This document shows positions 12,915-22,337 of a stretch of DNA of 32,000 nucleotides, piece by piece. The stretch is from an uncultured archaeon (GTDB lineage: Archaea > Asgardarchaeota > Lokiarchaeia > Sigyniarchaeales > Promethearchaeaceae). Numbering within the stretch: position 1 is the stretch's first letter; each line of letters opens with the position of its first letter. A program made the translations under genes and the position numbers. The DNA is taken from assembly GCA_964426185.1 (NCBI GenBank), contig CAYRPF010000006.1, positions 1 to 32,000 of the forward strand, given 5' to 3'. The notes under the pieces were generated by a model. It did no database searches. It saw nothing but the letters and a program-made list of their open reading frames with translations, and had not been told where the DNA came from.

Positions 12915-13805
12915 TTAATTATCTTGCACGCCCAGTTGGGTAATTAACTGCTTTTTTTGCGTCTCGACATCCCGTGAAAGACCGAATGTGTCGGCAAACT
13001 GATCAGTTGTAAATAACTCAGAAGATCGACCCTTCTTTCGCGCCTCAACATAACCCCGGTCAATTAAAAATTTAACATGCTCATATGCTGTGGAACCACG
13101 CAACTTAACCAAAGTCGATTTCATCAAAGGTTGTTTTAAGGCAATAATAGTTAAGGTTTTCAGAATTGCATCGGGAATTAATCCTCCACTAGCGAATTTT
13201 TTCACTTTGGGCGTATATTCTGGCTTAATTTGCAAGCTGTATTTATCTTGAATATGGACAATTTCTAACGCAGTTGGGCGCATTAAATAATCCATAGCTA
13301 ATTCATCTAGTAATTTTTCCAATTCCCTTTTTCGGATATCGGTTTTAGTGCTTAATTCTTCAACAGAAACAGGTCTACCTGCAACAAAGAGTGCTCCTTC
13401 AACCACATTTTTCAAATGGATATAGGCTTCTTCTTCATCGCTCATGGGTGCAATATCTGCATTTTTTTTTTCAAGAGAATCTTTTTCAGAGCTAATTTCT
13501 TTGGTTTCTTGGCCAGATCGTTCATTCAATATCTCACGAATCAAAGTTTCACCCGTTTTTACATCCTTAACTGCTTCAGTGTCTTTATCCATGAATTCCG
13601 TGTTTTCATTCTCTGTTACAGATTTTGATTCCATCATTTCTGAATCTTTTTCGATTTCCAAATTATTTAATTCAGAAATTTCTTCATTCCCCACACTTTC
13701 TCCAAGTTCATCTTCCAATTCTTCCAAGTCGGAAAGAATTTCCTCGTCCAAATCAGAATCATCTTGCTTTTCCAATAGCTCCTTCTGTTCGGGTTTTTTT
13801 TCCAT
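12915..13805 (-). CDS. scpB: SMC-Scp complex subunit ScpB with long acidic N-terminal extension
   Basis: VEGALFVAGRPVS, LKTLTIIALKQP, LRGSTAYEHVKFL and FTTDQFADTFGL; located downstream of scpA and smc. Confidence 0.93.
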   Translation of the reverse strand: MEKKPEQKELLEKQDDSDLDEEILSDLEELEDELGESVGNEEISELNNLEIEKDSEMMESKSVTENENTEFMDKDTEAVKDVKTGETLIREILNERSGQETKEISSEKDSLEKKNADIAPMSDEEEAYIHLKNVVEGALFVAGRPVSVEELSTKTDIRKRELEKLLDELAMDYLMRPTALEIVHIQDKYSLQIKPEYTPKVKKFASGGLIPDAILKTLTIIALKQPLMKSTLVKLRGSTAYEHVKFLIDRGYVEARKKGRSSELFTTDQFADTFGLSRDVETQKKQLITQLGVQDN

Positions 13806-13838: not shown

Positions 13839-14987
13839 CTAAAATTCTAAGCTTGTTTGATCAATGAGTTTAATCATTAAAGGCGCTTCAGTATCCTCTT
13901 GGTGCAAAATAATTTTACTTAATGAAGCCAAAAATAACATTTCTTCGAATGTTTGAATATATTTGACTTTCTTCTCTAATATTTTAAGCGAATTATCTTG
14001 ATAAATCATATTTTTAAAATAATCCATTGAAACAGTGCGATTTGGTGGATTTTCCATTCGAATAATTTCAACTAATTGACGATGGCGGCGTTTTAAACGT
14101 TCCTCAATGGTTTCTTCACTTCCTGTAATATGCTTTAATATTTCTGCTGGTAATCGCCCCTTACCACGCTTTTTAACTTCTTTCTCGCGTTTTGCCATTT
14201 GCTGTTCTCGACGTATTCGAAGTTTTTCCCTTTTTTGCATTGTTTCAATAATTGCGCGGCGCATTGCTCCGAAGAGTTCTTCTGAAGTAGCAATTTTCCG
14301 GGCTTCTCGTAGTGGTTGAGCGATAGGTTTTGGAATTTGCCTACGAATCCGTTCCCGCATTTCAGCTTTCTGGATTTCTTCTTCTTGTTTAATAACTCCA
14401 GTAATTTTAGAATGGTATAATTGGGCTGAAGAGTAAATTGCCAAGCCGGAGATACGAAAATCGATTAATTCTTCTTCGACCATTTTCGAAACGAAATCTT
14501 CAATCAACGATGAAAGATCAAATTTAGTAAAATCCACTGTTTTCGCTAAGTCGGGGTCTAGGAGACTACGATAAGGTTCTTCCAGCCACCATTTCTTGAT
14601 TTGAGAGATTTTTTCTAATTCTTCCTCCATTACATCTTTCTCTTCTAAATCCTCACCAACAGAGATCACTTCTTTTATTTTTGGTTCTGCAGGAGTCCTT
14701 TTTTCTTTAGGTTTTTTAGTGGTTTTTTGTGATTTTCTCGTTTGCGATGTTGTTGTCTTTGATGGTTTAGCGATTTTTGCATTTGTTACCTCTAATGGTT
14801 TTTGTTTTGAGATTGTTGAAACTTTTGATTTCGTCGATTTTTTAGATTTGGTTAATTTTTTTTTAGATTTTGACACACTACTCTTTTTTTTGCTCGACTT
14901 TTTACGTGAGGTTCCTTTTCGAGCTGAGGATTTCTTTGAACTAGTCTTTTTATTTCTGGGTTTTTGAATTGTTTTTTCTGTTGTCAC
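13839..14987 (-). CDS. scpA: Kleisin ScpA with Lys/Ser-rich N-terminal extension
   Basis: N-kleisin segment FDLSSLIEDF...DFRISGLAIYSSAQLYHSK, middle SEELFGAMRRA and C-terminal winged helix TFEEMLFLASLSKIILHQ. GTG start after AGGAGG; lies between smc and scpB. Confidence 0.88.
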   Translation of the reverse strand: MTTEKTIQKPRNKKTSSKKSSARKGTSRKKSSKKKSSVSKSKKKLTKSKKSTKSKVSTISKQKPLEVTNAKIAKPSKTTTSQTRKSQKTTKKPKEKRTPAEPKIKEVISVGEDLEEKDVMEEELEKISQIKKWWLEEPYRSLLDPDLAKTVDFTKFDLSSLIEDFVSKMVEEELIDFRISGLAIYSSAQLYHSKITGVIKQEEEIQKAEMRERIRRQIPKPIAQPLREARKIATSEELFGAMRRAIIETMQKREKLRIRREQQMAKREKEVKKRGKGRLPAEILKHITGSEETIEERLKRRHRQLVEIIRMENPPNRTVSMDYFKNMIYQDNSLKILEKKVKYIQTFEEMLFLASLSKIILHQEDTEAPLMIKLIDQTSLEF

Positions 14988-15013: not shown

Positions 15014-18000
15014 TTAATTCTGATCGGGAGTATCTTTTACCAACTCCACATTCGTATCAAAATCCTCTCTTTCCTTTTCTTCTTCAAGATTAACTGTAAA
15101 AATATCGGTAATTCCGTCATTCATTGCAACCCCATAAATCCGATCTGCATTAGTGATATTTTCTTCTCGATGACTAATGACTAAAAATTGAGATTGTCTG
15201 GCATATTCTTTGATTACCATCGAAGTTCGATAAACATTTGGACCATCGAGAGCTGCATCTATTTCATCCATAATGTAAAATGGAGCGGGATAAAAGTTTT
15301 GGATTGCAAAAATAAAAGAAAGGGCAACCAATGTCTTTTCTCCGCCTGATAAAATGTCCAGCGATGAAATTTTCTTTCCTCTTGGTCTGGCTTCAATGGT
15401 TATTCCACCTTCAAAAGGATGGGCTGGATTTTCGAGAATCATTTTAGCGGAACCGCCTGGAGATAGTTTTTGAAACACCGAACTAAACACCCGATTAATT
15501 TCGTGATATGCCTTCATGAAATTCCGCGTTTTTTCCAACTCAATACGGTCAATAGAATCCAAAATAGCTTTACGCTCTCGTTGGAGAGTTTGCCGACGCA
15601 TATCAATTTCATCCCAGCGTTCTTTGACTTCATCGTATTCTTCAATGGATTTTAAGTTTACTGGCTCTAAGGCTTTCTTTTCAGTGTTAGCGGTTCCAAT
15701 TTTCTGATTTAATGTTTCTTCATTTAAATCATCTGTCACTGGTGGTAAGGTGCCGTAATCTTTTGATTTTTCAAAAAGTTCATCAATTTTTTCTTCTACT
15801 ACAATTTTACGAGTTTCTAATCCGTTGAATTTGGCATTATTTCGTGATAAATCCGCATTCAATTCACCTAGTTCATCTCGGAGCGATTTCTGTTTTTCCC
15901 AAGAAGCATTTTTTTGACCTTGAAGATCTGTCAATATTTCAATTTGTTTTAATCGCGATTCTTCAAGTTTTGTAATTTTATCGGTTATAGATTTAATTAA
16001 TTCTTGAAAATCGGCAATTTTATCTCCTAATTCACCCTCTTCGTCCTTAAGTTGTTCAATTTCGCCTTCCCGGGCCTTCATTTGAACTTGCTTATCCAAC
16101 TTCTTTTCCAAAGCCTTAATTTGATTGCTAATTTCTTTAGACTGTGCTCTTAATTCTTTTTCTTTTGATTCTAATGACTGTCGTGCAGTTTGATGTTCGG
16201 CAATGAGTTTATTTTTCTCTTCAATTTGACTTTCTAATTCATGAATTTGGTTCTCCAATTCTTCATTACTCTTAGTATTTTCAGCAATTTTCTCGGTAGA
16301 TTCGGTAATTTCTATTTCTAATGCTTCAATATCGGAAATTATTTTTTGAACATTTTGCAAATCCTTTATTCGACCGTTGACCTCACCCAGTTTATCCGAT
16401 TCTAAGTCAATTTGGGCTTGTAGATCGGTTCTCACATCATCAGCCTTAGCTCTTTTCTCCTTAACTTCGGAAATTTTGGCGAGAATTTCATCAATTTCTT
16501 TTTGTACTTTTTCACTTTGAGTAGATAGATCTTGAATATTTTGGTTTTTTGTCTCAATTTCTACTTGTAATTTCTGCTGTTCTTCAGTTGCATTATCAAT
16601 ATCGTCCAATAGTCGCTTAACATTACTTAAACTATTTAAATCGTCCACAATTTGTGCCAATTCTTCTGATTTCTCGTCAATCAGGCTCTGTAAGTCTTTT
16701 GAATCTTTCCAAAAATTTTCTGAAGATTGCTTCAATTCAGTTAACTTTTTGCTAATAGATTCAATTTCCTCTTTAATTTGACTCGCTTTGGTTGATTTTT
16801 CCTCAAATTCTTTTCTATTTGTTGAGATTTTAGATTCCAAATCATTAATTTTCTTTGTTAAGGCAGAGATTTGAGAGTTTGTTTGATTCAATTCTTGTTG
16901 TTTTTGCTCTAAATGGGCAGTAATTTTTGTAAATTGAACTGAAGCCTTAGAATATCCTTCTGCTTGAGCGGAGATAGCTGTATTGAGATCTTCCAAAGCA
17001 CGATAATGCTCAGAAGTATCTGCAACAGCCACAGCTTGAAGTGCTACCCTTATTGAATCGAATTTATCAGTAAAATCTTGAATAAAACCATCAAAATTCG
17101 CCGTGGATTCATTTAATGCTTCATCACTAGCTTCTTGAACCATTTCATTTAACTGAATTAAAGGTTGTTCTGCATTTTCAATCAACAATTTTAAAGTATT
17201 AACCGCAAAAGAGAGTTGTTCTTGAATTTCTCGGGGTTGATCAGGTGTCATTTCAGAAATTTCTTCAATCGACCGAAGCATATCGGTAACATCGAGCACA
17301 AATGCTTTAAAAACCTTGCTGGATTCATCAATGGCAACTTGGCTCACATTTTGAATGTCTGATTTAATATCGCCTGCAGATCGGTCAATATTCAGAATAA
17401 GATTAGTGAGATTATCCAGAACAGAGTTTAATTCTACCTGGGTTTCGTTATGTTCTGCTTCCTTTTTATCAATGGTTTCCTGCAGTTTTTCCCTTTCCTC
17501 TTTCATATGCTCTATTTTTTCACTGAAATTATCAAGTTGAGCTTGTAATTTAGTTTGTTCAGCGGATAGAGCGGCAATTTCTTTTTGTAGATTATCGTGA
17601 ATAATTTGAATATGTTGTTGCTGACGTTGGCTGGAATGAAGATCTGTTTCTGCTGTTTTAAGTTCTACCCCTATTCCAGTAAGTTTCTTTTCTAAGTCTC
17701 CTAATTCCCCTTCTAATGCACGCCTTTTTAATTCAAATGACTCTTGCTTGGTTTGACTGCGTTTTTGTTCCTCGTTGGCAGAGTTTAATTGAGATTTTAA
17801 ATCTTTGACTTGGTCACCAATTTTTTTTTCTTTAGATCTTAGGATTTTGATTTGATCTTCCACAGCTTGCCCTTTAGTTAATTTTTCGTATTCTTTTTGA
17901 AGAGTGTTCTTTTTTGATTCCAGATCTTCGATTCGTTTTTTGATTAAATTTATTTCTGCACCAGTTGAAGAGACTGCTGCTTGAATATCTGATTGAGATT

Positions 18001-19477
18001 TGGCAACCGTGTCTCTTTGTTTTTCTAATTTTAGAATTTCTTCATCTAATTGTTTTTGGAGGTTTTTTTGTTCAATAATAGATTGCTTAAGTTTGGTAAT
18101 TTGATCTTGAATAGCTTTTGCTTCGGTATTGGCTTGTTCCATGGCCTGTTCTATGCTTTCTGCATCTTTTTGTAGTTTTTGTAAATCTTTATCTAATTGA
18201 GATTTTCTTTTTTCGTTCTTTTTGATAGATTTCTCAAGAAGCTTAATTTCAGTAGTTAAAGCTTTACTGTCTTGTTTAATCTTAGAAATTTCTTTGTTTA
18301 TTTGAGCCTTTTCGGCGTTAATATCAGTGATGATTTGTTCTTCTTCTTTTTGTTTTACTTTATTTTCTTCAATAAGTCCTGCATTTTCATCAAGTGCTTG
18401 TTGTACTCCATCAATTTCTGTCTTAGTGCGTGCTATCAAATCATCAAAAGTTTGACCTTCTTCTAATTTCTCTTGAAGTTCTTCAAGTTTGATTATATTT
18501 TGTTGAAGCCGTTTTAAATTTTCTTCCGTGGCCTTGAGAGTTGCTTCTTTGGCAGAAAGTTCTGCTTTTTGAGCGGTAATTTCTTCATCTAATTTTGTTT
18601 TTTCAGTTTCTTGAACTTCAATATCTTCTTCTAATCCCTTTAAAAATAACGCTTCTGCTTCAATTTTATCTTTCTGTCGTTGAATTCTGTTTTTTAAGTC
18701 TTCAATTACCAATTGGGTAGATTCGATTTCTGCATTAATATCATCCTCTTCCAAGCGCATTTTATGAATTTTTAGTGCGATTAACTGAGCGTTGAATAAA
18801 TTTACTTTATTATCTAGTTCTTTCCAACGAAGAGCATCATTTTTTTCTTTTTCAACTTTTTTCAATTGAGTAGAGACTTCTTTAAATATCGCCTCAAATT
18901 GACCTAAATCTTTATCTGCTTTCTCTAGCTCTTTCAATGTCTTATCTTTCATTTCGTCATATTTACTTAATCCAATCAACATTTCAATAAATTCACGTCT
19001 TGCATTGGAACTCATATGAGTTAATTCTACGATTTTTCCTTGAAGAACAAATTGATTAGAGCCATCAGGATCAATATTTGCTTGAGCAAGAGCATTTAAA
19101 ATGGCCGTTCGGGTACTTGCCTTGCCTTGGATACGGTAACCACTAGTTCCACTGCGTTTTATCCATCGCGACACTTTGAATTCATCAGAATCGCTGGGAA
19201 AAACCCGATCTTTATTATCAAAAACAATTTCTACTTCTGCACGAGTTGCTGGTTTAACTTTTTTAGATCCTGCGAAGATTAAATCAGTTAATTTTGTGGC
19301 GCGCATGGTAGACTTTGCCAATCGACCGAGAGCAAAACATAAACCATCAATTACATTAGATTTTCCATTTCCATTCGGTCCCACAATGCATGTAAACCCT
19401 TTAGCAAGATTGACTGATACAGTGCGATTTCCGAAAGATTTGAACCCAGTCATCACGACACGTTTTATATAGGTCAT
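15014..19477 (-). CDS. smc: Chromosome segregation ATPase Smc, elongated, with non-canonical central domain
   Basis: GFKSF, Walker A GPNGNGKSN, Q-loop FVLQGKI, PVNLKSIEEY, signature LSGGEK, Walker B/D-loop YIMDEIDAALD and H-loop ISH; long coiled coils; operon with scpA and scpB. Confidence 0.95.
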   Translation of the reverse strand: MTYIKRVVMTGFKSFGNRTVSVNLAKGFTCIVGPNGNGKSNVIDGLCFALGRLAKSTMRATKLTDLIFAGSKKVKPATRAEVEIVFDNKDRVFPSDSDEFKVSRWIKRSGTSGYRIQGKASTRTAILNALAQANIDPDGSNQFVLQGKIVELTHMSSNARREFIEMLIGLSKYDEMKDKTLKELEKADKDLGQFEAIFKEVSTQLKKVEKEKNDALRWKELDNKVNLFNAQLIALKIHKMRLEEDDINAEIESTQLVIEDLKNRIQRQKDKIEAEALFLKGLEEDIEVQETEKTKLDEEITAQKAELSAKEATLKATEENLKRLQQNIIKLEELQEKLEEGQTFDDLIARTKTEIDGVQQALDENAGLIEENKVKQKEEEQIITDINAEKAQINKEISKIKQDSKALTTEIKLLEKSIKKNEKRKSQLDKDLQKLQKDAESIEQAMEQANTEAKAIQDQITKLKQSIIEQKNLQKQLDEEILKLEKQRDTVAKSQSDIQAAVSSTGAEINLIKKRIEDLESKKNTLQKEYEKLTKGQAVEDQIKILRSKEKKIGDQVKDLKSQLNSANEEQKRSQTKQESFELKRRALEGELGDLEKKLTGIGVELKTAETDLHSSQRQQQHIQIIHDNLQKEIAALSAEQTKLQAQLDNFSEKIEHMKEEREKLQETIDKKEAEHNETQVELNSVLDNLTNLILNIDRSAGDIKSDIQNVSQVAIDESSKVFKAFVLDVTDMLRSIEEISEMTPDQPREIQEQLSFAVNTLKLLIENAEQPLIQLNEMVQEASDEALNESTANFDGFIQDFTDKFDSIRVALQAVAVADTSEHYRALEDLNTAISAQAEGYSKASVQFTKITAHLEQKQQELNQTNSQISALTKKINDLESKISTNRKEFEEKSTKASQIKEEIESISKKLTELKQSSENFWKDSKDLQSLIDEKSEELAQIVDDLNSLSNVKRLLDDIDNATEEQQKLQVEIETKNQNIQDLSTQSEKVQKEIDEILAKISEVKEKRAKADDVRTDLQAQIDLESDKLGEVNGRIKDLQNVQKIISDIEALEIEITESTEKIAENTKSNEELENQIHELESQIEEKNKLIAEHQTARQSLESKEKELRAQSKEISNQIKALEKKLDKQVQMKAREGEIEQLKDEEGELGDKIADFQELIKSITDKITKLEESRLKQIEILTDLQGQKNASWEKQKSLRDELGELNADLSRNNAKFNGLETRKIVVEEKIDELFEKSKDYGTLPPVTDDLNEETLNQKIGTANTEKKALEPVNLKSIEEYDEVKERWDEIDMRRQTLQRERKAILDSIDRIELEKTRNFMKAYHEINRVFSSVFQKLSPGGSAKMILENPAHPFEGGITIEARPRGKKISSLDILSGGEKTLVALSFIFAIQNFYPAPFYIMDEIDAALDGPNVYRTSMVIKEYARQSQFLVISHREENITNADRIYGVAMNDGITDIFTVNLEEEKEREDFDTNVELVKDTPDQN

Positions 19478-19489
19478 TTGAAATATTAG

Positions 19490-19568
19490 TCTCCTAAATA
19501 CCTAACATATGAAATCCTTAAAGTATCAATCTCCTAAATACCTAACATATGAAATCCTTAAAGTATCA
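19490..19568. repeat. Exact 39-bp direct repeat, two copies with 40-bp period, in the smc / gelsolin-gene divergent intergenic region
   Basis: tctcctaaatacctaacatatgaaatccttaaagtatca at 19490-19528 and 19530-19568. Confidence 0.95.
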
Positions 19569-19592: not shown

Positions 19593-22337
19593 ATGAGCAA
19601 TTCTTCCAAAATTCTTCTTCCTTATATACTCAAACCAGAAGGAAAGATAGAACCACTTGATATAGAAGATATTCCTTCAAAATTAATTTCTGTTAATATT
19701 TTGTATTTTTATCACTATGAAAAGAAAAGATTATATATTTGGATTGGTAAAAATGCAGGAAAGAAATTAAAGCAGACAATACCTACTGCAGAAGAAATAA
19801 TTTTAAAAAAAAATCCAGATATCACAATTATTCGCCATTTTACGGTAGATGAAGGAAGCGAAACACATGATTTTTGGCAAGATACCGCTCTTAATCCCGA
19901 AAATATTAGAAAAATTCAGCAAAAATGGTCTGAATTCCGATTAGATCAATATGCTTTGTTAGATAAACTTCGAATCAATATGACATCTGCTAAAAATACT
20001 GGTGATTTTGAAAACGCAATAAATTATATTGAACAAATACTTAAAGTTGCAGAAGAAATTTATGATTGGGATTTGATCGATGAATTCACACAATTACGTG
20101 ATCAAATCCTTCGAGTAAAAGATTTGAGATCTCGAAAAGATGAAATCAAGCGCGAAATTCCCCATAAAATTGCCAAGCTTGATAAATTAATGGCAGAAAA
20201 TGAGGTTATAAAAGCCCATGATTTAGCCGTTGAAATTCAAGAATATTACTCAATTTTATTTAATGAACCCATTCCCCGTAAATTTCAAAGATCATTAGAC
20301 TCAGAAAAAATGTTGTACGATGAATATATTAGAATAAAGAAAGATATTAATGATTTACAAGAGCGGTTTAATGAGTTCTTACCGGAAAGAAATTTAAGAA
20401 CTCTCTATCGCATTGGTAAAAAACTCGTCCAATTAAATGAAAAATTTGACGATATTACGATTGATCAGTCAATGATGGAACAAATTTCCTTAATTGAGGC
20501 ACAATACAAAGAATGGGAAAAATCAGAAAGAGAATATAGAAATAATATAACCACCTTAACATCAGCATACCAACGAGCAAAAAGTAACTATGAATTTGAT
20601 GAGGCTCAGCAACATTTGGAGAAAATAATAGAATTAATTCAAACTTCAGATCATAAAAGTGAATTAGAACAATGGGAAACTGAAATATCGAATTTGAAAG
20701 AATTAAAAAAACAATGGGAGCTGCAAAAAGAAGAAGCTAAAAAGAAAAAGTTAGAAAATCGTGATAAAATTAAGCAAATGCAAGCAGAAATTGAACAACA
20801 ATTACATAATAGAAATTTCCCAGAAACCTTTGCTTCCGTGGAAAAACTCTATCTTTTTGCCTCACAAACTCATGACGAAGAAATTGAAAAAGAAATTGCC
20901 AATTATCGGAAAGAAATTAATGAAAAAATAACAAACTTAAAGTTGTTAGATATATTATTGAAAAAAATTTCAGAATGGGAAGAATCTTTCCCTGAATTGA
21001 AAAAAACCAAGCAGTATGATACAATTTTAAGCGATCTCAATATATTCCTTTCTGATGAAGCCATAAATTATTCACTCGAACATAAAGCCAGATTATCAGA
21101 AATCAAATCGTCCATCGAAGAATTGAAGGAAAAATACTCGAAGAATGTAGCGCTCTATAATCGCTTATCTACAGAAATCAAAGAGAATGAAAATAAAGAG
21201 CAATGGATGGCTTTAACCCGTAATGCTAAACGCATTCAAGAAATCCTTCCTGAAATTGATAAGGAAAATGAGCACATAAAGTTTCAAGAAATAGAAAATT
21301 TAGCCAATCAAAAAATTAAGGAGAAAGAGAAGAAGAAAGAAGAAGAATTGGCTCAATTATTAAATAAAGCGAAAGAAATCGAAAATATCATCCAGAGTGA
21401 AAAAAAAATACTCCCATTGGTGGAGGATTTATCATTAGAAGACATCTTACCGAATTTATCTACCGATGTCAACGAAATGCTTACTCAAATTGAAAGCGTA
21501 TTAGATAAGCAGCGCGTTGAGGTTAAGGATGATATGGAAAGTTCAATGCTGTTAACCAGTGCCTCGGGCGAAACTATGGAGATCACTGCAAAAATACAAG
21601 TTTCAATGGAGTCTGCTTCACTTGATAAGGAAACTTTGGAGATCTCCCCGTTTACGAAATTTAAGGCAAGTTCTGTGTTGGAAAATCCATTCCACGACGC
21701 AATTTCTGAGGTGATTATTGAAGATATTATTCCCTATAACTTTGAAATTTCTGATATAAACGTGGAGGGGGGCGATAATTTCGAAAAACCCGAAGAACAA
21801 TTACACAAAGACGGCTTCGTCTTAAAATGGAAATTAAATAACATTCCCGCCCAAAACTCGGTTAAAATTAATTATGAATTACGTAAAAGAGTCTCACGAA
21901 CTATTCTAATTCCCTTGGAAACGCAATTAAAGGTAATAAAAACCCATACGAGTATCAAAGATTATTCTCCAGAAGGTTTGTACGATGTAACCATGTTTTT
22001 CAAAAACAAATTTGCAAAGTCAGTCATCGGCGTTGTTATTGAAGATATAATTCCAACCTTTTATCATTTCCAAATTAAACTTCCTAAGGATGCACTACCT
22101 GCTTCTCAAGTAGAACAACCAATTGGAGCACTTATTAAGTGGAATTATCACGAAATTCTTGAAAATAAGGAATTGAAACATCAATATCGTCTGTTAAATT
22201 TGGCTCAATTTGAAAATTTAAAGATTTTAGTGGATAAATTGACACGTGAAGCTTATAATACACTTGAAAGAGGCGATATCGATAAATCTTTGGCAACTTA
22301 TCAAAAAATTGTCAAAAAATTGCGAAAGTTTACCTAA
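19593..22337 (+). CDS. Gelsolin-like domain protein with helical-repeat rod and two C-terminal Ig-like beta-sandwich repeats
   Basis: N-terminal LYIWIGKNA...TVDEGSETHDFW (gelsolin/villin repeat signature); recurring helical units; two V(I/V)IEDIIP...(L/I)KW...Y repeats 107 aa apart. Confidence 0.75.
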   Translation: MSNSSKILLPYILKPEGKIEPLDIEDIPSKLISVNILYFYHYEKKRLYIWIGKNAGKKLKQTIPTAEEIILKKNPDITIIRHFTVDEGSETHDFWQDTALNPENIRKIQQKWSEFRLDQYALLDKLRINMTSAKNTGDFENAINYIEQILKVAEEIYDWDLIDEFTQLRDQILRVKDLRSRKDEIKREIPHKIAKLDKLMAENEVIKAHDLAVEIQEYYSILFNEPIPRKFQRSLDSEKMLYDEYIRIKKDINDLQERFNEFLPERNLRTLYRIGKKLVQLNEKFDDITIDQSMMEQISLIEAQYKEWEKSEREYRNNITTLTSAYQRAKSNYEFDEAQQHLEKIIELIQTSDHKSELEQWETEISNLKELKKQWELQKEEAKKKKLENRDKIKQMQAEIEQQLHNRNFPETFASVEKLYLFASQTHDEEIEKEIANYRKEINEKITNLKLLDILLKKISEWEESFPELKKTKQYDTILSDLNIFLSDEAINYSLEHKARLSEIKSSIEELKEKYSKNVALYNRLSTEIKENENKEQWMALTRNAKRIQEILPEIDKENEHIKFQEIENLANQKIKEKEKKKEEELAQLLNKAKEIENIIQSEKKILPLVEDLSLEDILPNLSTDVNEMLTQIESVLDKQRVEVKDDMESSMLLTSASGETMEITAKIQVSMESASLDKETLEISPFTKFKASSVLENPFHDAISEVIIEDIIPYNFEISDINVEGGDNFEKPEEQLHKDGFVLKWKLNNIPAQNSVKINYELRKRVSRTILIPLETQLKVIKTHTSIKDYSPEGLYDVTMFFKNKFAKSVIGVVIEDIIPTFYHFQIKLPKDALPASQVEQPIGALIKWNYHEILENKELKHQYRLLNLAQFENLKILVDKLTREAYNTLERGDIDKSLATYQKIVKKLRKFT

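Follow-up and report, generated by a model that had tools for sequence, protein, structure and literature searches.

The Smc-like gene in the window, i.e. the whole stretch of 32,000 nucleotides that was analysed, raises the question of how the arms of an SMC protein become longer. Its product, P0001, was described in an earlier note as some 300 residues longer than a typical Smc, with arms lengthened by duplication of whole modules of about 90 and 97 residues. The excess length is real: P0001 has 1487 aa against the 1185 positions of a profile built from canonical Smc, and its two arm strands measure ~570 and ~550 aa against ~330 aa in canonical Smc. The gene is followed downstream, on the same strand, by scpA and scpB:

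15014..19477, minus strand: gene of the Smc-like ATPase P0001, a hinge-less, long-armed paralogue (ORF, 1487 aa)
13839..14987, minus strand: scpA (kleisin), 382 aa (phmmer match to PDB 6ivh, E 3.2e-7, aa 150-253)
12915..13805, minus strand: scpB (kite), 296 aa (PF04079, E 2.7e-34)

The ScpB product scores 102.7 bits with TIGR00281, above the cut-off of 89.2. A Pfam search assigned ScpA to no family, and the PDB entry that it matches is titled 'Segregation and condensation protein A'. P0001 carries an SMC_N domain in its head (PF02463, E 3.4e-45), and its translation contains a Walker A motif (GPNGNGKSN), a signature motif (LSGGEK) and a Walker B motif (FYIMDEIDAALD). The heads resemble those of the Pyrococcus Smc structures 5xei and 5xns, PDB Smc heads being matched at E 7e-124, and residues 1-486 and 1132-1470 are collinear with the canonical Smc profile. 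P0001 thus shares with the prokaryotic condensin Smc-ScpAB of B. subtilis and Pyrococcus (5xei, 5xns, 3zgx, 6ivh) the ABC heads, the head-proximal joint, the antiparallel arm and the adjacent scpA and scpB. It differs from this condensin by its long arms, its lack of a hinge domain and the presence in each arm strand of four modules detectable in the sequence, which are absent from 57 canonical Smc. It is also a paralogue: the host genome encodes two SMCs besides P0001, among them a canonical Smc of 1203 aa that scores 828 bits with TIGR02169 and 705 bits with TIGR02168, whereas P0001 reaches 583 bits with TIGR02168 (cut-off 567.35, above) and 635.7 bits with TIGR02169, below the equivalog cut-off of 729.4. 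Two other identities were rejected, Rad50 (58-102 bits with the Rad50 models, cut-offs 700-1087) and the archaea-specific SMC-related protein ASRP (NF045487, 153 bits, cut-off 300).

The apex of the arm has no recognizable hinge. The hinge family PF06470 gave no match in aa 640-870 even at E 1, although the same model scored 93-125 bits on the positive controls P0131, P0135, P0136 and P0138 and 111.5 bits on the host genome's gene on contig C3. Comparison of the apex with solved hinge structures was equally negative. The AF2 model shows two long helices forming a hairpin, for which Foldseek returned generic hairpins only, and the indels of the family are concentrated at 741-751. In many related genera, a strongly hinge-bearing Smc was not found. 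Rad50/SbcC proteins likewise combine a head of SMC type with a long antiparallel coiled coil whose apex is devoid of globular hinge; P0001 differs from these proteins by the absence of a CxxC zinc hook (its only cysteines, C30 and C47, lie in the head and none occurs from aa 48 to the C terminus) and by its partners, a kleisin and a kite protein instead of Mre11. From marine Actinobacteria, Sussfeld et al. (2025; PMC12153180) described an SMC homologue in which a coiled coil adjoins the ATPase head and the hinge is likewise absent. It forms a bacterial clade that comes only from ocean metagenomes, and arm modules are not mentioned in the portions of that article consulted here.

Between heads and apex, the N strand contains four tandem modules of 97/98 aa each (aa 245-633) and the C strand four tandem modules of exactly 90 aa each (aa 863-1222), 90 residues corresponding to 12 heptads and one hexad:

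18746..18955, minus strand: head-proximal part of the N-strand arm, aa 175-244, with discontinuities of joint type (heptad breaks 218 and 233; collinear with the canonical Smc profile)
18455..18745, minus strand: N-strand module 1 (LN1), aa 245-341 (lag 97 similarity to module 2; hhalign LN1-LN2 E 3e-9, LN1-LN3 E 2e-10)
18164..18454, minus strand: N-strand module 2 (LN2), aa 342-438, beginning at the EGQ loop and the delete-1 heptad break 342 (AF2 loop 334-343; hhalign LN2-LN3 E 3e-17)
17870..18163, minus strand: N-strand module 3 (LN3), aa 439-536, beginning at loop 435-441 (AF2 loop pLDDT <50; hhalign LN3-LN4 E 7e-14)
17579..17869, minus strand: N-strand module 4 (LN4), aa 537-633, beginning at the KGQ loop 533-539 and the delete-1 break 537 (heptad tracking, AF2, hhalign)
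16892..17578, minus strand: apex, aa 634-862, an all-helical hairpin in place of the hinge, turn at aa 742-748 (AF2, Pfam and PDB negatives)
16622..16891, minus strand: C-strand module 1 (LC1), aa 863-952 (lag 90 similarity; hhalign LC1-LC2 E 1e-12)
16352..16621, minus strand: C-strand module 2 (LC2), aa 953-1042, beginning at the delete-1 break 953 and the AF2 break 948-953 (heptad tracking, AF2, hhalign)
16082..16351, minus strand: C-strand module 3 (LC3), aa 1043-1132, beginning at the delete-1 break 1043 (heptad tracking, hhalign; pLDDT dip ~1030-1049)
15812..16081, minus strand: C-strand module 4 (LC4), aa 1133-1222, delete-1 break 1137 (heptad tracking, hhalign; W1193 conserved)
15017..15811, minus strand: C-strand joint (breaks 1242-1252 and ~1270-1276) and C-terminal ATPase head, aa 1223-1487 (AF2; canonical profile positions 845-1183; PDB head matches)

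The motifs on which the earlier note had built its proposal are present in the translation where it placed them: LSNVKRLLDDI (950), LQNVQKIISDI (1040) and QVQMKAREGEI (1130) every 90 aa on the C strand, the third being a weak match by eye, and on the N strand EGQTFDDLI (340), DAESIEQAM (438) and KGQAVEDQI (535) together with TEIKLL (409), AEINLI (507) and VELKTA (604). The two tryptophans that it singled out, W923 and W1193, are likewise in place, and across the family Trp occupies positions 923, 1013 and 1193, an identical offset within the module.

Any coiled coil should show some correlation near lags 91 and 98, both being multiples of 7, and the repeats could be mere heptad background. With plain shuffles of P0001 alone, lag 90 in the C arm (z 8.7), which is not a multiple of 7, stood above lag 7 (z 5.4) and was accompanied by lags 180 (z 5.6) and 270 (z 4.7); in the N arm, lag 195 reached z 7.0, lag 97 z 3.7 and lag 98 z 3.1. 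When the shuffles kept the heptad register, lag 90 of the single sequence retained z 3.4 (0/2000) and the N-strand lags 97, 98 and 195 were marginal (z ~2, ~40/2000). In a profile of 114 orthologues under the same register-keeping shuffles, the signal was clear on both strands: z 6.7 and 4.95 for lags 90 and 180 of the C strand, z 5.5, 4.5 and 5.1 for lags 97, 98 and 195 of the N strand, none being equalled in 1000 shuffles. Lags 90 and 97/98 thus keep z 4.5-6.7, whereas in this profile the plain heptad-multiple or satellite lags (83 and 97 in the C arm, 91 and 105 in the N arm) drop to an absolute z of at most 1.2. The 57 canonical-length Smc display no lag-90-type peak, just a decaying heptad series, while the peak is present in each of ten diverse members of the long class and six of the short class described below. 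An assembly artefact is contradicted by the ORFs of 1460-1513 aa present in over 100 genomes, of which several are assembled into a single contig. Heptad background and assembly artefact, refuted by the register-preserving null, the canonical Smc, the module alignments and the orthologue lengths, can hence be practically discounted.

The modules were further compared as profiles with hhalign. Every within-strand pair aligned in register and end to end (probability 90-99%, E 1e-6 to 3e-17), the apex controls failed (19% and 3.6%), and the highest similarity was found between neighbouring modules. The modules resemble each other most at core positions a and d, and the resemblance extends to flanking positions and to surface positions b, c and f. 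The C-strand modules are mutually ~12-24% identical at the protein level and no DNA-level repeat was detected in the gene, so the duplications would be old and are deduced from protein similarity.

Similar residues every ~90 aa could also be imposed by convergence, if a constraint acted once per superhelical turn, through closed-rod arm contacts or a periodic partner as in tropomyosin. Such a constraint would account for the peak at a and d positions, for a period equal to the functional period of B. subtilis arms, for the consensus-like LN3, about equally similar to every N module, and for the absence of a DNA-level repeat. It fits poorly with the end-to-end alignment of whole modules, in register and surface positions included, at E down to 3e-17, with the lack of such a repeat in canonical Smc arms of equal coiled-coil geometry, with the greater likeness of neighbouring modules, as after tandem duplication, and with sister clades exactly one module per strand apart. 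We regard convergence as quite unlikely. Long-period repeats are also present in the coiled coil of the myosin rod. The pseudo-repeats of tropomyosin are a further example (cited in PMC5344682). Both rods resemble P0001 in a long-range period on top of the heptads and in regular discontinuities, but they consist of two parallel chains and their periods follow those of partners in binding or packing, whereas P0001 is an intramolecular antiparallel coil with unequal units of 97.5 and 90 aa. Tandem duplication of whole-period modules, as first proposed from the motifs, appears the better reading of these repeats, the direction of later gain or loss being left aside.

The module borders coincide with structural discontinuities. 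The AF2 model (aa 170-1300, pLDDT 76.7) is all helical; loops interrupt the N strand at 334-343, 435-441 and 533-539, and a further loop forms the apex turn at 742-748. A short N-strand loop per module had been predicted, and these helix breaks agree with it; each contains a conserved Gly (341, 437 and 536, Gly536 being 99% conserved). Heptad tracking on the family profile located delete-1 breaks at 342 and 537 on the N strand and at 953, 1043 and 1137 on the C strand; position 438 lies in a loop but shows no heptad phase shift. Counted in residues from the apex, loops 334-343, 435-441 and 533-539 lie opposite the one-residue heptad deletions 1137, 1043 and 953, respectively. What supports this pairing register is a residue count along the secondary structure predicted by AF2, together with a single natural pair of heptad deletions; a covariation scan for N-to-C strand pairing gave no signal. 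The difference in unit length, 97.5 - 90 = 7.5 residues, is in keeping with the loop size. Each N module would thus carry a Gly-containing loop of ~7-10 residues facing a one-residue C-strand heptad deletion, and one N and one C module would together form a coiled-coil segment of ~90 helical residues, roughly 13 nm at the usual rise per residue. With a Gly loop of the N strand set against a hexad of the C strand at intervals of ~13 nm, these discontinuities might be working joints allowing the ~80-nm arm to bend or fold segment by segment as a multi-elbow; the module would then be both the step by which arms change length in evolution and the motor's mechanical step. This model is speculative and, in our judgement, unlikely.

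If arms change by whole modules, orthologue lengths should differ by steps of ~187 aa (97+90) and not continuously, and this is what was observed. The complete relatives fall into two discrete classes, 1460-1505 aa (whole-genome ORFs up to ~1513 aa) and 1290-1304 aa, and a complete form of intermediate length was found neither among the listed homologues nor in the best 150 of 1.84 billion representatives nor in 400 Asgard genomes. The two classes have the same apex domain; the arms of the short one are missing a block from each strand, 96-97 aa long in the N strand and 90 aa long in the C strand. Other changes are rare: among 136 orthologues, with identity down to 42%, the arm outside the apex loop shows three indels in total, a matched pair of 7 aa in P0014 only (N 384-392 with C ~1076-1087) and, in 32 of the 136, a deletion of 2 aa in the C strand. 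In a heads-only tree, the two classes are sister clades and canonical Smc lies outside. On the C strand, the module without short-class counterpart is LC1 (best gap position 863-884), the short-class SC2 being closer to LC2 (score 96.9) than to LC1 (66.5). On the N strand the comparisons are ambiguous, as LN3 resembles all three short-class N modules and both LN2 and LN3 are similar to SN2 (79.2 and 76.5).

These scores bear on the direction of the change. The four-module form may be ancestral, the 1290-1304-aa clade having lost one N and one C module, by deletion and not lengthening. LC1 is about equidistant from LC2 (64.8) and from SC2, LC2 and SC2 being close, which points to a duplication predating the split; the head tree, with the classes as sisters, allows either direction; and the long form occurs much more widely (13/13 genomes in f1 and 114/135 in f3, against 2/4 with the short form in f4). 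On the other hand, the equal proximity of LN2 and LN3 to SN2 would follow from a split between them later than the divergence of the clades, and a three-module stage must have existed if modules came one by one. Loss is a serious possibility, a little short of evenly balanced, and would leave the duplication origin of the modules unaffected.

Under either direction, the modules would have arisen via tandem duplication within both halves of the gene, and later change in arm length would have occurred solely in whole paired modules. A step of 96-97 + 90 aa is expected to preserve the superhelical phase from head to apex, so that three-module and four-module forms could both work; the strictly kept length of the 136 orthologues lends at most indirect support to a need for arm lengths in phase. 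As judged from sequence comparison and structure prediction, P0001 is most probably the SMC subunit of a predicted lineage-specific Smc-ScpA-ScpB complex of one order of Lokiarchaeia-type Asgard archaea, in which the hinge is replaced by a helical hairpin and the arm is made of four tandem modules per strand, produced by tandem duplication and changing in length by whole paired modules.

The ~91-residue functional period of B. subtilis Smc arms, to which the earlier note referred, is documented (Burmann et al. 2017, Mol Cell; PMC5344682). In the same study, natural arm lengths were found to be multimodal (238, 341 and 515 aa, minor modes 163 and 423), with steps of ~100 aa. The quantised lengths emerged from engineered proteins and from statistics of arm length in sequences that had been collected by means of their hinges, and internal sequence repeats were not reported (PMC5344682). 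A hinge-based search would probably miss the P0001 family, because it has no hinge. The sister clades, differing by 96-97 aa (N) and 90 aa (C), agree with that work, and arm length in nature appears to differ by the same ~90-residue steps as the Bacillus experiments tolerate. In contrast to that work, the period of the P0001 family takes the form of tandem modules in the sequence, bordered by regular discontinuities; a B. subtilis-type period thus seems to be written into natural sequence.

SMC arms are thought to be tuned mechanical units whose length is matched to the superhelix, a view supported so far by engineered B. subtilis proteins and length statistics. The sister clades display the permitted step directly, one module per strand with almost nothing between, and the module step would offer a concrete evolutionary route for changes in SMC arm length. 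It also poses the question of how matching units can be added or removed at two distant places in one gene. The natural module borders may be usable for designed arm resizing, and the hinge-less family would be a natural test of the separate contributions of arms and hinge.

Repeat modules were confirmed in both arm strands of P0001, the hinge-less long-armed Smc of the window (residue numbers below refer to P0001). The protein is encoded by an open reading frame of 1487 aa on the minus strand (15014-19477). This frame contains all the coordinates of the earlier note, which correspond to aa 340-1219, and the motifs listed there were all found at their positions in the translation. The SMC heads match PF02463 and, at E 7e-124, the head structures of Pyrococcus Smc. 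P0001 scores 583 bits against TIGR02168, above the cut-off, and 635.7 bits against TIGR02169, below the cut-off of 729.4. Downstream on the same strand lie the genes of a 382-aa kleisin, whose residues 150-253 match the ScpA of PDB 6ivh (E 3e-7), and of an ScpB (PF04079 match; TIGR00281 above cut-off). Among the matches listed, the named homologues belong to Lokiarchaeia or Promethearchaeota, the closest being those of 'Candidatus Harpocratesius sp.' (79% identity) and Lokiarchaeum ossiferum (Smc, 63%). A 40-nt tandem direct repeat whose copies are 90% identical lies immediately 5' of the smc start codon (19478-19557), and the divergent 914-aa ORF beside smc (19593-22337, plus strand) has no Pfam match at E 0.001.

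The repeated regions span aa 245-633 on the N strand and aa 863-1222 on the C strand, with four modules each.

Repeat modules of P0001 (residue numbers)
245-341, N strand, module LN1
342-438, N strand, module LN2
439-536, N strand, module LN3
537-633, N strand, module LN4
863-952, C strand, module LC1
953-1042, C strand, module LC2
1043-1132, C strand, module LC3
1133-1222, C strand, module LC4

In P0001 alone, BLOSUM62 autocorrelation of the C arm peaks at lag 90 (z 8.7), with further signal at lags 180 (z 5.6) and 270 (z 4.7) and at the heptad lag 7 (z 5.4); in the N arm, lag 195 has z 7.0, lag 97 z 3.7 and lag 98 z 3.1. As 91 and 98 are both divisible by 7, a stricter null was built, in which the heptad register was assigned from a 114-orthologue profile by phase tracking and a Viterbi path, and columns were shuffled solely inside each register class. 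Under this null, the heptad-multiple and satellite lags of the family profile (7, 14, 21, 83, 188, 202 and, in the C arm, 97) drop to |z| <=1.2. The module lags survive: lag 90 (z 6.7) and lag 180 (z 4.95) in the C arm, and lags 97 (z 5.5), 98 (z 4.5) and 195 (z 5.1) in the N arm, none of 1000 shuffles attaining any of these values. For P0001 on its own, the register null leaves lag 90 at z 3.4 (0/2000) and the N-strand lags at z ~2; the C-strand repeat is thus clear in one sequence, and the N-strand repeat depends on the family. Core, flanking and surface heptad positions all share in the excess similarity. Profiles of the modules were aligned by hhalign end to end and in register for every within-strand pair (probability 90-99%, E 1e-6 to 3e-17), the apex segments used as controls giving 19% and 3.6%. 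Together with the lags that survive the register null, this supports the modular arms proposed in the earlier note. The lag-90 peak is present in 10/10 diverse members of the long class, i.e. the P0001-like orthologues with four modules per strand (z 4.7-11.3), and also in six members of a shorter class described below. The same autocorrelation applied to 57 Smc proteins of canonical length gave smoothly decaying heptad series only. A myosin-like period of 28 aa, prominent in P0001 alone, was dropped, lag 28 being outside the 14 highest-z lags of the family profile.

Each C module is made of 12 heptads and one hexad, and one-residue heptad deletions interrupt the C strand at 953, 1043 and 1137. 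On the N strand such deletions occur at 342 and 537 only, which explains the alternating unit lengths of 98 and 97 aa. An AlphaFold2 model of aa 170-1300 (69 family sequences, mean pLDDT 76.7) is all helical, with N-strand loops at 334-343, 435-441 and 533-539 (pLDDT <50 in the last two), a turn at the apex (742-748), a break in the C strand (948-953) and joint-type breaks at 1242-1252 and about 1270-1276. Glycines are conserved in the N-strand loops at 341, 437 and 536. The N-strand sites picked out previously (340, 438 and 535) are these three loops, and the suggestion of one short loop per N module agrees with the model; it is further supported by the fact that an N module exceeds a C module by 7.5 residues, the length of the loop.

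If residues are counted outward from the apex, the partner of loop 533-539 would be 948-953, that of loop 435-441 about 1047 and that of loop 334-343 about 1138. This secondary-structure arithmetic suggests that the N-strand loops face the three C-strand discontinuities. The 1460-aa orthologue P0014 has lost one heptad per strand (N 384-392, C about 1076-1087); its C-strand deletion lies near the predicted partner position, which supports the N-to-C pairing. P0014 is the sole orthologue of 136 with full-heptad arm indels, a natural compensated pair at roughly facing positions. A search for the N-to-C register by covariation (APC-corrected mutual information, 136 sequences, Neff 51, antidiagonal sums) gave no peak above noise, the maximum being z up to 3.1 among 200 offsets. 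The regular discontinuities may act as repeated or multi-elbow joints.

A profile of 57 canonical Smc proteins is collinear with aa 1-486 and 1132-1470 only, and the region between 486 and 1132 takes the place of both hinge and hinge-proximal arm. Pfam, the sequences of solved structures and fold comparison all revealed no hinge in P0001, and the positive controls for PF06470 did match. The hinge position is occupied by the apex (aa 634-862), an all-helical hairpin: AlphaFold2 folds aa 640-870 as two helices (pLDDT 80), for which Foldseek against the PDB returned generic helical hairpins only (best E 0.1). The apex also carries an internal duplication with a 72-aa offset (window 16990-17440, aa ~680-830), seen by autocorrelation (z 4.8) and by hhalign of aa 680-737 with 752-809 (97.7%, E 2e-12).

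Arm length is nearly invariant among the long-class orthologues. An alignment of 136 full-length sequences, down to 42% identity, was surveyed for indels over aa 170-1300; besides the heptad pair of P0014 it contains only a 2-aa C-strand deletion and variation in the apex loop (741-751, plus one 2-aa insertion at 766). The 2-aa deletion, near 905-917, is found in 32/136 sequences and is not mirrored on the N strand. It falls in the first C module (window ~16727-16765), near a conserved YW at 922-923.

A discrete step appears beyond this class. Among the best 150 of 1.84 billion representatives searched with aa 1-1200, the long family (1464-1497 aa, >600 bits) forms the top tier. It is followed by P0124 (1296 aa, 478 bits), then by fragments of 327-657 aa (357-475 bits) and finally by canonical Smc of 1140-1211 aa (<=223 bits). 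P0124, labelled 'Candidatus Sigynarchaeota', has at least eight further full-length relatives of 1290-1304 aa. This short class possesses the long-class apex domain, shifted by 94-100 residues, and has no match to PF06470. A MAFFT alignment with the long class shows it to be shorter by 97 aa in the N strand and by 90 aa in the C strand; the diagonal offsets are 96 and 90. The length step of ~187 aa that the earlier note had posed as a check is therefore seen between the two classes (96-97 aa N plus 90 aa C), and a difference of one module per strand between sister clades supports changes of arm length by whole periods. Among the matches listed, no complete form had two or five modules.

Similarity is highest between neighboring modules (LN2-LN3, E 3e-17; LN3-LN4, E 7e-14; LC1-LC2, E 1e-12), which is the pattern left by tandem duplication. 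There are no DNA-level repeats at spacings of 270 or 291-294 nt, so the duplication events are old. On the C strand, orthology by hhalign is clear: the short-class modules SC2, SC3 and SC4 correspond to LC2, LC3 and LC4, leaving LC1 (863-952) as the module without a short-class counterpart. On the N strand, LN3 is about equally similar to SN1, SN2 and SN3. MAFFT places the gap at 491-587, a single-gap scan, biased by a +1 skip at the short-class junction, at 439-534, and hhalign sums allow N2, N3 or N4. The location of the extra N module is hence ambiguous, each method favoring a different position. In a tree of the heads only, with the arms left out, the long (98) and short (100) classes are sister clades with canonical Smc outside. 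A single change explains the difference between them, gain and loss fitting the tree and the module similarities alike. Whichever way the step went, the four similar modules imply a stage at which duplication built the arms. A module step requires two events, far apart within one gene.

In a survey of 400 Asgard genomes, matches to the apex domain are confined to one order, save three outside it.

Apex domain in families f1-f4 of the order
f1: 13/13 genomes, open frame about 1480-1513 aa
f2: 1/1 genomes, open frame 959 aa (incomplete)
f3: 114/135 genomes, open frame about 1480-1513 aa
f4: 2/4 genomes, open frames 1307 and 1349 aa

The long class occurs in f1, f2 and f3, and f4 appears to correspond to the short class. 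Shorter frames were obtained from several incomplete assemblies; lengths of 860-1350 aa in this survey are those of open frames, many near contig ends, and are probably truncated. Outside the order, the domain was observed in genomes G039 (family f13) and G063 (family f16; open frame 1501 aa), which could reflect mis-binning, gene transfer or a wider family distribution.

The genome encoding P0001 has two further SMCs. One, a canonical Smc of 1203 aa (L011:5043-8654, plus strand), has a strong hinge (PF06470 111.5 bits) and scores 828 bits against TIGR02169; a 189-aa ScpB comes after it. The other (L012:5015-8548, plus strand) is divergent, 1177 aa long, and has a weak hinge of 29 bits; the two ORFs after it, of 256 and 193 aa, have no Pfam match. 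Three SMCs fit the two or three SMC complexes reported in Asgard archaea (bioRxiv 10.1101/2024.01.07.573240). The same genome also contains a 1025-aa ORF weakly similar to the Smc apex (L013:678-3755, minus strand, contig C26; E 1e-10, 23% identity), with no Pfam match except a weak Lys-rich HC2-like tail; its relatives in f1 show two tandem apex matches. Among near-complete genomes of the order (61, a sample rather than proof of absence), f1 and the f3 genera g9, g17 and g18 were the only groups to yield a strong-hinge Smc of about 1200 aa. In most f3 genera (g13, g19, g20, g21) the hinge-less protein was seen with no more than a weak-hinge SMC of about 1150-1170 aa, which suggests that the hinge-less complex may be the main condensin-type SMC there.

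Burmann et al. 2017 (PMC5344682) report that the functional arm lengths of Bacillus subtilis Smc follow a 91-aa period, close to a superhelical period of ~99 aa. Natural arm lengths across Smc sequences, which they collected via hinge alignments, are multimodal, successive modes lying about 100 aa apart. A hinge-less SMC is described in marine Actinobacteria (PMC12153180). The literature search found no paper on internal repeats in SMC arms or on a hinge-less Asgard Smc. In this family, the sequence itself shows the arm period, in the form of modules with regular discontinuities, and a natural step of one module separates sister clades; both aspects seem to be new.
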